In this document: positions 48,895 to 55,232 of the stretch, one piece after another | Layout of the letters: every line of letters begins with the position of its first letter | Position numbering within the stretch: position 1 is the stretch's first letter | Assembly: GCA_963748825.1 (NCBI GenBank) | Contig: CAVVKN010000010.1 | Coordinates: forward strand, 1-64,000 | From: Methanotrichaceae archaeon | Lineage (GTDB): Archaea; Halobacteriota; Methanosarcinia; Methanotrichales; Methanotrichaceae | Direction: 5' to 3' | DNA length: 64,000 bases | Position numbers and translations under genes: made by a program | Notes under the pieces: generated by a model | The model's database searches: none | Told to the model about the DNA's origin: nothing | Seen by the model: only the letters and a program-made list of their open reading frames with translations

Positions 48895-49190
48895 CTAGAA
48901 CCACTCCAAATCTAGTATAATAATTTTAGCTAGTTATATTTAAGATTTTTGATCAAGAGATTGCAGAGAATGCAGTTGAAAGTGACTTGAAAAATTTTTA
49001 CCTTAAAATATTTTGTTAAAATTAAGACAGAAATTGCTCGGGTCCAATCAGGAGAGCAGCTCAGTCGGCTGATCAATGAATCTACTTTGTATTCCGGCTC
49101 TTCACTATTTCCATTAACCATCCAAAGCTGCAAGGAATCTGTAATTGCCATGTGGTTAACGCTATATTATTGCAGAGCACTATTGCCTGC

Positions 49191-49538
49191 ATGGCCAGAG
49201 ATCTGAATGAGAGGGACCTGCAGATTTTAATAAAGCTGGTTCCGGAGCTGGAAGCGCTGCAGAAGAAGGGAATTGAGATTGAGTACCTGAATATTCTGCC
49301 TCCTGTGGCCAATCACCACTCCCGGAGCGTGCAGGAGTTCGAGCAGCGCTTGAAAAAGCTCTCTGTCGAGGATATGCGCTATCTGGCCGACCTGGTTTTG
49401 GAGGGGACGGAGAGTACCGGCTGCCTTTATCCCGATTTTGCCGAGGTCTTCTTCACTGTGGCCGGGCAGATGCTTTCAGAGAGCGTGGCCGATCAGCTCC
49501 GGGAGGCATACGAGTCGGGTGAGGGATGCGGAGGATAA
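49191..49538 (+). CDS. Hypothetical protein
   Basis: MARDLNERD...ILPPVANH...ESTGCL; 3' end is duplicated at 50459-50545. Confidence 0.7.
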   Translation: MARDLNERDLQILIKLVPELEALQKKGIEIEYLNILPPVANHHSRSVQEFEQRLKKLSVEDMRYLADLVLEGTESTGCLYPDFAEVFFTVAGQMLSESVADQLREAYESGEGCGG

Positions 49539-49785
49539 AAACATCTGGCTAAAAATGCAATTGGAGCGCCCGGCCAGCTCTCGGGCGGGCCCGCTTGCAT
49601 GCGCACGCGTGGGGACGGCAGCCGGCCTTGGGCAGCTTCTCGACATGTTGCCCCATGCATGCGGGTGGAGCGGTGGCGAAGAAGGCTGGGCTCGTCGGGG
49701 TCAGATGAGTGCTAGCAAGAACGTAAGACTCTAGAAGGCCGATATCTTCGCAATGCTTATAGCCTCGCAGGAAGGAGTAAACATC

Positions 49786-49941
49786 ATGGCAGGAGCTGAA
49801 AGCAAGAAGCTATCACTTACCGTCGAGGATGATCTCAAGATCGTGGCGGGATCCCTTGAAGGCCTGGCAGAACATCGGGCTGGCAAAGGGAAAAGCTTTG
49901 ATAGCGTTGATGATCTTAAAGCCTATCTGGAGAAGCTCTGA
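49786..49941 (+). CDS. Putative antitoxin
   Basis: Short ORF ending GKGKSFDSVDDLKAYL (typical RelB-type tail), GGAG RBS, directly upstream of RelE. Confidence 0.7.
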   Translation: MAGAESKKLSLTVEDDLKIVAGSLEGLAEHRAGKGKSFDSVDDLKAYLEKL

Positions 49942-49946
49942 GGGGC

Positions 49947-50213
49947 ATGGCGTACATCTTACGCCTCACTCCCAGATTTGAGAAGAACTTTCAGCGGCTC
50001 ACTAAGAAGGATCATGTTTTGCGGGATCGCGTCTATAACAAGCTCTCCGAGATCCGCGATAACCCATTCATCGGTGAGACGCTTAGTCATAACCTGGCTG
50101 GCATGATGAGCACCCACGTTGGCAATTGGGTGATTATCTACATAGTTGAGGACGAAATGATCGTCCTTCTGAACTTCGATCACCATGACCGTGCCTACTT
50201 CAGGCCGCTCTAG
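49947..50213 (+). CDS. RelE/ParE-family toxin
   Basis: YILRLTPRFEKNFQRL...NPFIGETL...HVGNWVIIY...FDHHDRAY. Confidence 0.85.
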   Translation: MAYILRLTPRFEKNFQRLTKKDHVLRDRVYNKLSEIRDNPFIGETLSHNLAGMMSTHVGNWVIIYIVEDEMIVLLNFDHHDRAYFRPL

Positions 50214-50458: not shown

Positions 50459-50545
50459 CTACCGTGGCCAGTCAGATTCTTTCGGAAAACGTGTCCGATT
50501 AGCTCCGGGAGGCGTACGAGTCCGGGGGGGTGCGGGGGATGAAAG
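50459..50545 (+). repeat. Degenerate direct repeat of the 3' end of the 49191..49538 gene (49453-49540)
   Basis: Translates TVASQILSENVSD*LREAYESG versus TVAGQMLSESVADQLREAYESG. Confidence 0.8.
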
Positions 50546-50644: not shown

Positions 50645-53016
50645 CTATCCTGAGCTACGACGCTGATCGCAGTATTGCTCCAGAGCCTGCTGGACTCTTC
50701 GGCGGTCTCGTTCCTTACGCAAGCGGAGTTGCAGGGCGCGATGCAGGTGTTGGCAGGCCGCCTTTTCATCCCCATCGGGCAACAAACATTCCACCGCAAA
50801 GTGATAATGGTTGAGCGGGTTTGTCTCGTCCAAGCTTAGCGCTTCATTAAAGAATTGCCTGGCTAGGGCGAAATCTTTTCGCCGTGCAAGGAGAACGCCG
50901 AAGGTAGAAAGGATGAGCGCCTGCCCTTGCCGCTTGGATACGCATTTCAAGCCTCGTTCCAGTATCTTCTGGGCTGTGCTATCGTCGCCATGTCTGGCCT
51001 CCATCAGTGCCCAGACCTGATACACCGAAACGCTTTTCGGATCTGTCTGTGCGGCCTGTTGGAAGAGTTCACGCGCCCGCTCGTAGTTGCCCTGCTCCTT
51101 TTCCATCAGTGCCCAGGCCTTATACGCAAAGGCGTTATTGGGATCGGCTTGTGCCGCCTGCTCGAATAGTATCCGCGCCTGCTCATGGTTACCCTGCTCT
51201 TTTTCCATCAGTGCCCAAGCCCTATATACAGGGGCATGTTTGGGATCGGCTTGTGCTGCTTGCTGGAAGAGTTCACGCGCCCGCTCATAGTTGCCCAGCT
51301 CCTTTTCCATCAATGCCCAAGCATGCAAGGCGTGTGCATGTTTGGGATCGACCAGCAAGGCCTGTTGGAAGAGTTCACGTGCCCGCTCATGGTTACCTTG
51401 TTCCTTTTCCATCAATGCCCAAGCCTGAAAAGTGTGTCCATGTTTGAGATCGACCTGTGCAGCCTGTTGGAAGAGTTCACGCGCCCGCTCATGGTTACCT
51501 TGTTCCTTTTCCATCAATGCCCAGGCCTGAAAAGTAACCGGGTCTTTTGGATTAGCCCATGCCCCCTGTTTGAAGAGTTCACGCGCCTGCTCATAGTTAC
51601 CCTGCTCTTTTTCCATCAGTGCCCAGGCCTGATACACAGGTGCATGTTCGGGATCGGCCTTTGCGGCCTGTTTGAAGAGTTCACGCGCCCGCTCATGGTT
51701 ACCCTGTTCCTTTTCCATCAATGCCCAAGGCTGCAAGGTGCGGGCTTTGTTGGGGGCTACCTCTGCAGCCAGCTTGAAGAGTTGGCGTGATTGTTCGATT
51801 TGTCCCCGTCGTTTGAATGCCAATGGTAGCTGACTGAGTAGTTTGCGCTCGGGCAAGAGCGGATTGGACTGGAGCAGACTTCCCAGGGCTTGGTACAGAT
51901 CCTGGTAGAGGTAAGTATCTTCTGGCAGATATCTGCCGCAGAGTAATCCCAGGGCGGCCTCAGCTATCCAGGGGTGGCGGGTATTGAGCAGCTGCTCTTC
52001 CTCGGTACTGATTTCGAGCAGTTCGCCCTGCAAGGGATGAAGCAATCGGTGAGTAATCCTGTCCTCCTTCATGCTAACAAACCCTGCAAGCAGTGGGCGT
52101 GTCATTCCGAAGTTGAAACGGTGCACCAAGGCAATACCGGCATAGCTGCGCAACAGGAATTCTGTTGTTTCTTGACCGTGCCTTTTGGAGAGATCTTCGA
52201 AGACGCTTTCCAGAATTTGCCCAAAAGATTGGCCACGCCGCGCCGTCAGTAGGGCGGGAAGAAGTTGTCCGTCAGCCTCCAGGCGGTCCAAAAAGTGACT
52301 TACACGTTGGTCAGGTGAGAGGCTGGCTAGGGCACCCAGAGCATCGGCCTGATCCAGGCACTGCAAGAGATCTTGCACCTCGTCTTTCTGCAGCCGATCC
52401 AGCCGAAATTCTCGCAAGTAGGCCATGCGCTGGAAGGCGCTCCGAAGTTCGCTATTTTCCCAATCGTGCTGCCGGGCGCTTCCCAGCACGATGAAAGGCA
52501 GGCCGCTTTCGGCCAGGTCGGAGATCAGGTTGGGGAGTTTTTCTTCATAGGCAATCTCGTCAAAGCATATAACCAATCGTTGTTCCCCTGTCAGCGGAAG
52601 AAGGTAACTGCTCAGGACATGGCCGTAATGTCGCCATAAAACTGGGTGGCCGGCCTCAGCCAGTTTCCAGGCAGCGCGCATCAAGAGAGTGGTTTTTCCT
52701 TCCCCGGAAAGGCCGGTGATGATGCCTACGCGTTGAGCAGGCAGCTTAGGGTCGGTAACGAATTTAAGCAGATCGTCAAGCATGCGACGAGGGGAGTCGT
52801 GTTGTGCTGCAATATTCGCCCAATTGGGGCGCGTGCCATTGTAAAAGTCAGAAAGTCAGCAGGGGTGCGCGATCCTTGCATAGTGCGAAAGTCCTCGTCC
52901 AACGGATGATAGGCAAACTCTCCCTGGGCCGAAAGGGAAACCTGGTTGCCGTCCCCGGTGATGATGACCGTTCTGGTGGCATCGCCCTCAATTGTGACCT
53001 GCTGCGCAGTCTCCAT
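50645..53016 (-). pseudogene. NLR-like protein (N-terminal amyloid-type motif, P-loop NTPase, TPR/HAT repeats), frameshifted
   Basis: GLSGEGKTT Walker A, ICFDE Walker B, 34-aa repeats; tandem 8-bp duplication AAAGTCAG at 52844-52859 breaks the frame, and removing one copy gives ...PADFYNGTRPNWANIA...RRMLDD. Confidence 0.85.
50990..51790 (-). repeat. About eight highly similar 102-bp TPR-coding repeats
   Basis: Recurrent TTTTCCATCA(G/A)TGCCCA and GAAGAGTTCACGCGCC at 102-bp spacing; protein WALMEKEQGNxERARELFxQA. Confidence 0.9.
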
Positions 53017-53057
53017 CTTGCTCCTTCATCCGTCTTTAATTCTCGTCGGATATTGCA

Positions 53058-53482
53058 TCATTTGACTTGATTGCTGTCTCCGGTGACAATAACGCTCCCA
53101 CTGACATTCCCGCCAATAGCCACCGATCGCTCACCCCTAGCGATAGCCTTAACATTGCTGGCCTTTGCCTCCTGCCACATGCGGGAAACTTCATCCGCCA
53201 GTTTTTCATCCTCTGCCAGGATTTTCTTAAGCTGCAAGCGCAAGGCCGCCTGTGCGTCTTCATCTTTTGGAGCCGCTACTACATCCGTCACCGCCTCTAG
53301 CGCCGCAGGCTTGGCCTCGACCTTAGGGCGTAGTTTTCCCCACAATCCTTTAGCACTTTCCAGAGCATCTACGCCAAGTTTCTTGCTCGCTTCCTCGGCG
53401 GCCTTCCCGCCCAACTAACCAGATCTGGAAGGAAAGGGGCGAGGAAAGCGGTTATTTCTGTTGCCAATATTGTAACGTCCAT
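53058..53482 (-). pseudogene. Bell-domain-like protein with C-terminal amyloid-type motif, 1-bp frameshift
   Basis: MDVTILATEITAFLAPFLPDLV / LGGKAAEEASKKLG...DEDAQAALRLQLKKIL...RGERSVAIGGNVSGSVIVTGDSNQVK; one base missing near 53416. Confidence 0.8.
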
Positions 53483-53489
53483 CGGACAT

Positions 53490-55004
53490 CCGAACATGCT
53501 CAATACGTTGAATTTTGCATTAAGAATACGACCGCAAAATATAATTAGTTTTGGATACCTATCTAAAACTAATGGCAGCAATTATGGTGGACGGCATAAT
53601 CAATATCGATCCAGATAAGATCGACTTTGATGATAAAGATGCTGTTAAGAACATCATAATCGCTCTTCTTGGTACCATCGAGCATCTCGTTCAAAGGGAT
53701 ACTAAGCATCAAGAAGTGGAACAACAGCTTAGGGACGAGATAGCGATATTAAAAGGAGAAAAAGGAAAACCTAAAATACGGCCAAATGTCCCAGCGAGAG
53801 AACCACCCGTTCCGAAGCCCATAATCCAAAGTATGGTCGAAGGATTCTAAGAAAGACAAAGTAAAAGTAGACAGACAAGTTACTGTTTCTGTGAAAGGCA
53901 CATTACCATCCGATGCCCGATTTATAGGCTATCGAAAGGTAGTAATCCAAGACGTAATTCTGAAAACAGATAATGTCGAGTACCTGTTGGAGAGACATTA
54001 TTCTCCCTCACTGAAGAAATACTATGATGCAAAGCTCCCTGAAGAAGTCAGAGGGTCGCAGTTTGGAGCTAATCTCAAGGCACTTACGGCAATTCTATAC
54101 ATCTCGTGCCGGGTAACTGAGAACAAAATGTGCCAGCTATATAAAGACATAGGCATATCAATATCTGAAGGCCAAATCTCTAATATCATTACCAAAGAAA
54201 AGCACTTTGAACTTGCTCAGGAAAAGCAAGCTATATTTGAGGCAGGAATGAAGCATGCTAAGTTCATCCAGACAGATGAAACCGGAGCAAGACACCAAGG
54301 AAAGAACCAATATGCACATGTGGTGTGCAATCCATACTTCACTTGTTATTTTATACGGCCAGATAAGAAAAGAGATACCTTGAAAGCCATTTTTGGTCTT
54401 GGTAAAGATGAGCGTTTGAATATTCCTTTGATAACTGATGATGCAAAACAGTATTATAACTTGTCTATAATATGTTGTCTATGTTGGATTCACGAAATCC
54501 GCCATTACAAGAAGTTGAATCCGTATTTAGGATATTATAAACAGATACTTGATTCATTCCTAAGTGAACTTTTCGAGCTTTATCGAATTATTCAACTATT
54601 TAAAATTTATCCAAATTACATTCTCAAAGAGTATATTCTATCGAGATTCGAGGCCCTCATCTTCAAGTCTTATGGTTATAACGAACTTGAGCTGAGATTA
54701 ACCGCAACTTGGGGAAATCGAGATCGATTGTTTCAGGTTCTGGATTATCCATATATTCCGCTCCATAATAACGAGTCTGAAATAGCAGCTCGCGAACCTG
54801 TTGTTAAGAGAAAGATCAGCTACGGAACAAGATCAGAATTGGGCAAGTGCGCATGGGAAAACGGTTTATCTATTAAGGATACGTGCAGAAAACTTGGGGT
54901 GAGCTTCTTTCAATATATGCACGATATTTATTCAAAATCATTTGCCATGCCGAGGCTAGCTGAGATACTGACTATTGCCCAATCATAGTATTGAGCATGT
55001 TCGG
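53490..55004 (+). mobile_element. IS66-like insertion sequence
   Basis: Perfect 17-bp IRs CCGAACATGCTCAATAC / GTATTGAGCATGTTCGG; ACAT repeated on both flanks (53486-89, 55005-08). Confidence 0.88.
53584..54988 (+). pseudogene. IS66-like transposase split by a frameshift near 53822
   Basis: LRDEIAILKGEKGKP coiled coil, then TDETG, CWIHEIRH, IPLHNNESE..AR..V.KRKIS.GTRS in another frame. Confidence 0.8.
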
Positions 55005-55232
55005 ACATCCCTCAACATATGTCAAATCATATAAGCTCTAAGCTGCAATCTACGGAGTATTCTGTTGAAGTTGAATTAAAGCTATTCCCAAAAAATAAAA
55101 TAGCCTGCCGCAGATTAAAATATCCTATTCTCTATTGAACCCGGTTTTTTGTATGATAGGAGAAGAAAAAGAAGGCGGGGAATTGCCGCCTTCCCCCCTC
55201 CCACCATTTTGCAGAAAAGTATCAACGGCTTT

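Follow-up and report, generated by a model that had tools for sequence, protein, structure and literature searches.

Two adjacent genes on the minus strand of a Methanotrichaceae archaeon, contained in a stretch of 64,000 nt (contig CAVVKN010000010.1; hereafter the window), share a motif of 20 residues, which lies at the C-terminal end of the first gene's product, a small helical protein, and at the N-terminus of its neighbor's product, a STAND-type receptor. We read the pair as a two-gene Bell/BASS-STAND cell-death relay of the type described by Dyrka et al. that has since decayed in this genome, and give this reading a probability of about 0.6. The assignment to the known Bell/BASS/NLR architecture is based on the homology of the small protein to Bell domains, on the place of its motif in the published BASS cluster C09 and on the matching of Bell tails to their own neighbors in 35 loci.

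A collinear gene pair with matching motifs

The small-protein gene (53058..53482) comes first, and the receptor gene (50645..53016) follows in the same direction after 41 nt. Both frames are broken, as the original prediction had implied in speaking of a repaired pair. The ATG of the small gene (53482-53480) begins MDVTILATEITAFLAPFLPDLV and stands in another frame than the open reading frame (ORF) of 118 aa that carries the remainder (TTG start, 53058..53414; C-terminal end ...ERSVAIGGNVSGSVIVTGDSNQVK / ...VAIGGNVSGSVIVTGDSNQVK); the intact form has 141 aa. The receptor gene, consisting of N-terminal motif, linker, nSTAND5 NTPase and TPR array, is split over an ORF at 52726..53016, which opens from 53016 with METAQQVTIEGDATRTVIITGDGNQV, and a second one at 50645..52783 (712 aa).

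In BLASTP, the Bell tail and the receptor start aligned with zero gaps, 11 of 21 positions being identical and 15 of 21 positive (E 1e-5). The Smith-Waterman score was 57, whereas the best of 5000 shuffles scored 51. In a ranking of the first 100 residues of all 8451 genome ORFs of at least 90 aa by their score against the Bell tail, the neighbor came first (57; next 44), and by a loose regular expression these two are the sole genuine copies of the motif in the 2.88-Mb genome. The ungapped 20-residue match first noticed in the sequence, with 11 of 20 identical, is thus confirmed. The Bell-side motif, VAIGGNVSGSVIVTGDSNQV, occupies 53064..53123 and belongs to the type of BASS cluster C09; the receptor-side motif, VTIEGDATRTVIITGDGNQV, occupies 52939..52998 and is kept at the N-terminus of receptor homologs. 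Both motifs are short, with a high share of G, V, I, T and N, as would suit a chance or low-complexity resemblance with no functional link; however, given the outcome of the shuffles, the first rank of the neighbor among 8451 ORF starts and the recurrence of the arrangement in many loci and phyla, we find such a coincidence hardly credible. Complex prediction for A1 residues 92-141 (Bell tail) and A2 residues 1-60 (receptor N-terminus) returned a score of 0.02 and a mark of 0.32, and weighs neither way.

We file the small protein, from its sequence, as a Bell domain of a separate subfamily, because of hhalign homology, an acidic second residue and a hydrophobic first helix. A Bell-family search (word-seeded HMMER) over 501 candidates retained 429 proteins at E<=1e-3, most of them 141-142 aa long, and the closest intact relative of the small protein, P0002, is 94% identical. 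The N-terminus reads MDVTILATEITAFLAPFLP, a hydrophobic helix with an acidic residue 2; in an alignment of 30 Bell relatives, at least 90% have M1 and D2, the hydrophobic N-terminal stretch is kept, and residues G, V, I, G and T-G-D of the tail vary little or not at all. The AlphaFold2 model of the Bell protein has helices over residues 3-116 (mean pLDDT 65.8) and a disordered tail (pLDDT < 50, residues 111-141). The profile of the small-protein family (A1) matched Bell proteins from two genomes of the same archaeal family (A4) in hhalign with a probability of 95.8% (E 6.7e-9, 85 columns), which bears out the earlier description of the small protein as Bell-like. The A4 proteins precede NB-ARC-like receptors whose N-termini carry FDQ.GQ.V.G.Q.N.AGD. 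Their link to a published Bell record is the likeness of this motif to AEB69175.1, whose motif is printed as FDQ.GQ.V.G.Q.N.AGD in the supplement of PMC8086366, and not an accession.

The small protein might instead be a regulator or chaperone, restraining the receptor or passing its signal on, rather than a killer. A point in favor of this is that its helical domain matched no Pfam, PADLOC or NCBIfam family and no structure convincingly; a sequence-profile search of the PDB with the Bell domain likewise gave no usable match. However, the protein is homologous to Bell domains, and its conserved N-terminal helix conforms to a feature, a hydrophobic N-terminal helix with an acidic residue, that is common to Bell, HeLo, MLKL and RPW8 (bioRxiv 10.1101/2020.01.06.895854). 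In addition, known effector types occupy the same motif position in other loci, and a scan of species-representative genomes, which yielded 139 Bell relatives of which the best 80 loci were kept, showed 12 of these 80 to encode the Bell domain as the N-terminal part of a long fusion protein (261-1033 aa), the usual position of an effector domain. We therefore hold a purely regulatory role to be quite improbable. The fused loci are L032, L064, L065, L068, L069, L079, L081, L083, L088, L089, L093 and L094; an 'all-in-one' form of Bell proteins is mentioned in the same preprint. A single one of the 80 loci is archaeal, from a Methanotrichaceae metagenome-assembled genome (MAG), the others belonging mostly to Chloroflexota, Acidobacteriota and Cyanobacteria. 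The ESM Atlas contributed solely unnamed clusters (~138 aa, Actinomycetota and Cyanobacteriota), of which one has PF20701 HetE-N on 14% of its members. Weak YadA_head matches fell on the motif in 14 of 30 Bell relatives, every one below the cut-off, and are no more than a hint of a beta-roll-like composition.

The receptor carries an nSTAND5 NTPase domain (Pfam PF25199, nSTAND_NTPase5; 52451..52852) with the Walker A sequence GLSGEGKTT and the Walker B sequence LVICFDE. The Pfam model scored 57.8 bits on the ORF and 89.7 on the stop-to-stop frame (cut-off 34), covering in the latter profile positions 1-140 of 145. C-terminal to it, many TPR/HAT models match in the 712-aa ORF, so that the P-loop NTPase plus TPRs of the original prediction is upheld; its description as NLR-like stands insofar as a STAND NTPase is combined with TPRs and falls short in that the NTPase is of the nSTAND5 type, not NACHT or NB-ARC. 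Within a wider TPR/HAT region (~50700-51835), self-similar TPR repeats occupy 51000..51783 (period 102 nt, 7.1 copies, 79% matches). They form seven near-identical units of 34 aa, whose differences lie mostly at positions 25-34; NLR repeats so conserved internally are familiar from the fungal NLR literature. About 40 of 47 NTPase homologs start with the pattern M..R.VTIQGNA..TVIITGD.NQV, a linker and then PADFYNGTRPNWANIA, the others being N-terminally truncated or different. The named homologs are from Anaerolineae and Roseiflexus, and the closest named relatives are Chloroflexota.

Three lesions in the window pair

Joining the ATG start of the Bell gene with the 118-aa ORF takes one extra base near 53415/53416, and DNA alignment with two intact relatives places a one-base deletion at 53415..53416. 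In the receptor gene, the 712-aa NTPase-TPR ORF lies in another frame than the first ~70 residues, as a result of a tandem 8-bp duplication, read from the minus strand as CTGACTTT twice at 52844..52859, that interrupts the linker between PADF and YNG; all full-length homologs read PADFYNG or a near variant at this place.

The third lesion is an IS66-family insertion sequence on the plus strand (53492..55000), which lies between the Bell start codon and the native upstream region and immediately precedes the ATG. The element has terminal inverted repeats, is flanked by a 10-nt direct repeat, TCGGACATCC, at 53482-53491 and 55001-55010, and encodes a transposase with PF03050 and NF033517 matches. 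From 55011 on, the native intergenic sequence continues; it can be aligned with that of the sister genome G065 up to the direct repeat. As to the element itself, its GC content is 38.6% vs 50.8% for the genome, and a small ORF (53551..53850) precedes the transposase gene. A second copy on the same contig (G000:C10:122131-123430) is 99% identical over positions 205-1509, and four other contigs carry more distant relatives (66-68% identical).

Two contigs from other runs lack the lesions. A 1499-nt contig from run X2 (~94% alike) is without the 8 bases, has the extra T and an empty insertion site, and continues into native upstream sequence; a contig from run X5 (~99% alike) likewise has the extra T and an empty site. 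The lesions are therefore particular to this genome or assembly. We also considered a programmed or family-wide frameshift and rejected it, since about 40 of 47 receptor homologs and the listed Bell relatives run in one frame; the near-identical contigs free of lesions further rule it out. The X2 contig has a one-base gap of its own in the Walker A (P-loop) codons (window position 52702, depth 4), and a receptor relative at L104:1872-3288 has a frame break at an A-run near PEE/KYLYQ; these breaks may be low-coverage assembly errors or further decay.

With the insertion sequence, the Bell deletion and the receptor duplication taken together, a working relay is unlikely here, and we suggest on this reading of the DNA that the relay is probably dead in this genome. 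Perhaps the system was silenced because it was costly.

Motif families, partner matching and the nature of the proposed relay

The original prediction had proposed a comparison of the motifs with BASS and RHIM profiles. We compared ten BASS training clusters from the data archive of PMC8086366; one of these, C09, includes AGVNVIASGNRSVAIGGNVSGSTIITGDQNQK (A9WJ48_CHLAA) and LGERSVAIGGDVTGSVIVTGDRNTVQQGKYN... (A7NJM5_ROSCS), and its RSVAIGGNVSGSTIITGD-type strings come from Chloroflexus and Roseiflexus. As RSVAIGGNVSGS is present in C09 entries, the window motif falls in a published BASS family, and these near-identical strings mean that the Bell-side motif is already catalogued. By the set sizes in Table 1 of PMC8086366, C09 is probably BASS6. 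The G-phi-Q-phi-G core of RHIM/PP/BASS3, defined for RHIM and BASS3 in bioRxiv 10.1101/2020.01.06.895854, is absent from both window motifs.

Matching between Bell tails and receptors was examined at all loci, regardless of score, where a short Bell gene is followed within 500 bp by an ORF of 300 aa or more (n=35). The mean Bell-tail score was 52.7 for the own neighbor vs 31.6 for non-own partners; none of 20000 permutations reached the own-pair mean, a figure that overstates independence because the 35 loci are related to one another. A score of at least 45 was found for 19 of 35 own pairs vs 200 of 1190 non-own pairs, and the own partner ranked first in 12 of the 35 loci. At least five motif types occur, each common to a Bell protein and its neighbor, and the partner NTPases comprise NB-ARC, NACHT with FGE-sulfatase, nSTAND1 with WD40, nSTAND5, AAA_35 and CHAT-AAA_16. 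Viewed from the receptor, 11 of 26 clear loci in metagenome data have a Bell gene directly upstream, so that the predicted linkage of the two genes elsewhere is found, and a further three have another motif-bearing ORF there (two small ones and one PRTase-CE effector); five have too little upstream DNA to be judged.

Several results weigh against the reading as a decayed relay. With regard to the pairs, seven of 21 judgeable receptor loci have at least 1 kb of upstream DNA without a motif-bearing gene. TGD-type pairs (n=27) are barely biased towards their own partners (identity 0.463 vs 0.424; 19/20000 permutations), and nSTAND5 pairs (n=12) are not significantly so (own 0.478 vs non-own 0.468; 2348/20000 permutations). 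As for the proteins, the receptor showed neither NACHT nor NB-ARC in a Pfam scan of the stop-to-stop frame or among the best 25 of 37 families for the ORF. The Bell model gave no HeLo, MLKL or Bab-like match, with no Foldseek hit to the PDB at E<=1e-3 and a best VIA-align Z of 5.5, among unrelated helical proteins, its mean pLDDT being only 65.8. Finally, the one-base Bell deletion could be an assembly error (the other two lesions hardly so), and no near-identical run covering it confirms the window's own reading. Based on these sequence comparisons, we take Bell/receptor matching to hold at the level of motif type and not of individual pairs; the motif co-variation on which the original prediction staked itself appears by type across the 35 loci and is missing within the 12 nSTAND5 pairs.

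This lack of pair-specific co-variation would suit a generic plug, and the motif could accordingly be a homotypic adaptor resembling the effector-associated domain EAD10, which recruits the effector by ordinary beta-strand pairing, without prion-like templating or amyloid. EADs are described as linking effectors to NTPase cores (PMC8195603). Moreover, six of 30 Bell relatives carry after the motif a second pseudo-repeat that matches Pfam EAD10 (PF19954), an ORF beside the nSTAND5 receptor of locus L110 passes the EAD10 cut-off (25.6 vs 24.1 bits) with a match that spans the motif itself, and a PRTase-CE effector bears the same motif. However, neither window motif piece matched EAD10 at E up to 10, and the motif cluster was collected as BASS, a class in which BASS1 and BASS3 form fibrils and prions (bioRxiv 10.1101/2020.01.06.895854); C09/BASS6 is not among the families tested for fibrils in the literature examined. 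EAD10 resembles the window motifs as a short beta-rich module found on effectors and at NTPase N-termini, with matches in Bell relatives, and differs in that the window motifs lack the helical N-terminal half of the model. We judge such an adaptor, the leading alternative, rather unlikely, noting that it differs from an amyloid relay solely in the physical state of the complex, which sequence does not decide. The objects described in the BASS literature and in that on EADs seem to overlap.

Tails with the second pseudo-repeat, ..TGDQNVVQQGKYNVSIGEAK..IGD.., occur in P0015, P0042, P0058, P0076 and P0079 and at L027, L031, L038 and L051. Their layout resembles the two repeats of HET-s, and pseudo-repeats have been reported for BASS1 and BASS6 (bioRxiv 10.1101/2020.01.06.895854). 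Directly upstream of nSTAND5 receptors we also saw two non-Bell stop-to-stop frames that end in the motif (L110:2701-2985, 95 aa; L108:2732-2992, 87 aa) and, at L117:185-1207, a 341-aa PRTase-CE protein (PF24390, E 9e-46) with the same motif type, ASGERSVVVFGNVNGGNITTGNENM, at its end, an effector other than Bell that bears this plug.

In the decayed-relay reading, the TPR array of the nSTAND5 receptor would have sensed a cue, most likely a protein of viral or other foreign origin, and NTP-dependent oligomerization would have gathered the receptor N-terminal motifs into a beta-rich nucleus. This nucleus would template the matching C-terminal motif of the 141-aa Bell protein, thereby releasing its hydrophobic N-terminal helix, which would attack the membrane and so kill the cell. 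What the sequences show directly is the layout of the locus, its motif match and lesions, and its family ties. We infer these steps, from sensing and oligomerization to amyloid templating and membrane damage, together with an immune role, by analogy with known systems.

The closest of these are the pairs of Dyrka et al., and the original prediction was right that the architecture is already described. The likeness extends to the small helical protein with its hydrophobic N-terminal helix and acidic second residue, to a C-terminal motif of ~20 residues that recurs at the N-terminus of the collinear STAND receptor next to it, and to cluster C09, into which the window motif falls, and a Bell domain from Methanothrix is among those published; however, the published screen required NACHT or NB-ARC, whereas the window receptor is nSTAND5 (PF25199) and the pair is broken. 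The Methanothrix soehngenii pair AEB69174.1/AEB69175.1 comes from the same genus-level archaeal group and likewise consists of two genes in this layout, with a Bell-type effector; peptide 5-29 of its NLR side aggregated in an amyloid-like manner (PMC8086366). Unlike the TGD-type window motif, that pair's motif, FDQRGQKVIGQQINVAGD, is described as resembling BASS3. Its Bell protein belongs to another subfamily with profile-level similarity only, and such proteins adjoin NB-ARC-like receptors in related genomes. The E. coli Bab/Agp pair, an abortive-infection antiphage defense (bioRxiv 10.1101/2024.11.07.622273), likewise consists of adjacent genes with a common amyloid motif, one of them for a small cell-death executor, but is bacterial and has its own motif family, BASS11. 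Fungal NWD2/HET-S is alike in logic, an NLR N-terminal motif templating the C-terminal motif of a neighboring pore-forming effector; no sequence relation was seen, however, and no HeLo match came out of the fold searches.

The architecture and the motif cluster are thus already in print, as is a Methanothrix example with an aggregating peptide. The preprint by Dyrka et al. (bioRxiv 10.1101/2020.01.06.895854) shows a Bell domain of M. soehngenii and reports two archaeal matched pairs, so that the remark that archaeal cases are little studied is true in part only: with a pair and its aggregating peptide published, they are not unstudied. An nSTAND5 receptor as BASS partner was not found in the literature searched, which left out Dyrka Table S2 (archaeal pairs), nor were strings typical of the window receptor found in the searched part of the PMC8086366 data file.

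Receptor exchange at a conserved archaeal locus

On either side of the pair, the flanks (window 58569-55165 and 49592-49154) are ~90% identical in DNA to a Methanotrichaceae MAG record (L023), and the locus adjoins an archaeal methionine adenosyltransferase gene. The MAG has a Bell gene at the same site, to which the window Bell gene is 78% identical at the DNA level. Its receptor has zero DNA similarity to the window receptor, being a CHAT-AAA_16-TPR protein with the N-terminal motif IQIGSDVNDSVLVTGSQNVI. Based on this comparison of flanks, Bell gene and receptor, we conclude that the receptor, and perhaps the whole pair, has been exchanged between conserved flanks.

Among 101 sampled genomes of the family, 12 (the window genome counted in) match the Bell query, and the receptor NTPase had no match at E<=1e-5 in the 100 other family genomes searched, many of them incomplete. 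A transfer between Chloroflexota and Methanotrichaceae is plausible from the sequence relationships. We considered composition as a sign of transfer; the GC content of the pair (0.547) is close to that of the flanks and of the genome (0.508), and therefore says nothing for or against it.

Tentatively, and with somewhat less confidence than an even chance would warrant, we propose that the BASS6/EAD10-like motif serves as a universal plug, by which receptor cassettes could be swapped behind a resident Bell gene, across STAND clades and domains of life, and that the swap at this site came before three independent lesions silenced the pair. The nSTAND5 receptor, the swapped receptor cassette in the sister genome and the Chloroflexota as nearest named relatives go beyond the literature examined. 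The pair adds a second, distinct Bell/BASS pair type to Methanotrichaceae and indicates that motif-linked Bell effectors serve STAND clades besides NACHT and NB-ARC, so that screens limited to those two Pfam families undercount such systems. No new kind of biology is opened, since architecture, motif cluster and an archaeal example are published; the receptor swap at a conserved locus, together with the bacterial-looking relatives, provides a concrete case for the movement and loss of death modules in archaea.

Another genome of the genus, G066 (L013, L021/L134, L137), has two Bell genes, each followed by an NB-ARC-like receptor, so that members of the family can hold several such systems; these receptors carry a third motif type, GGVAVGG.VSGS. 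Beside the window pair, there is a 70-nt direct repeat (49455-49524 and 50461-50530, 81% identical, spacing 1006 nt), between whose copies lie an ORF for a ParE-type toxin (49947..50213) and, upstream of it, a small ORF (49753..49941). The ParE-type module is absent from the L023 record and hence resembles an inserted cassette, and the repeat duplicates the 3' end of 49152..49538, a conserved gene of the flank.

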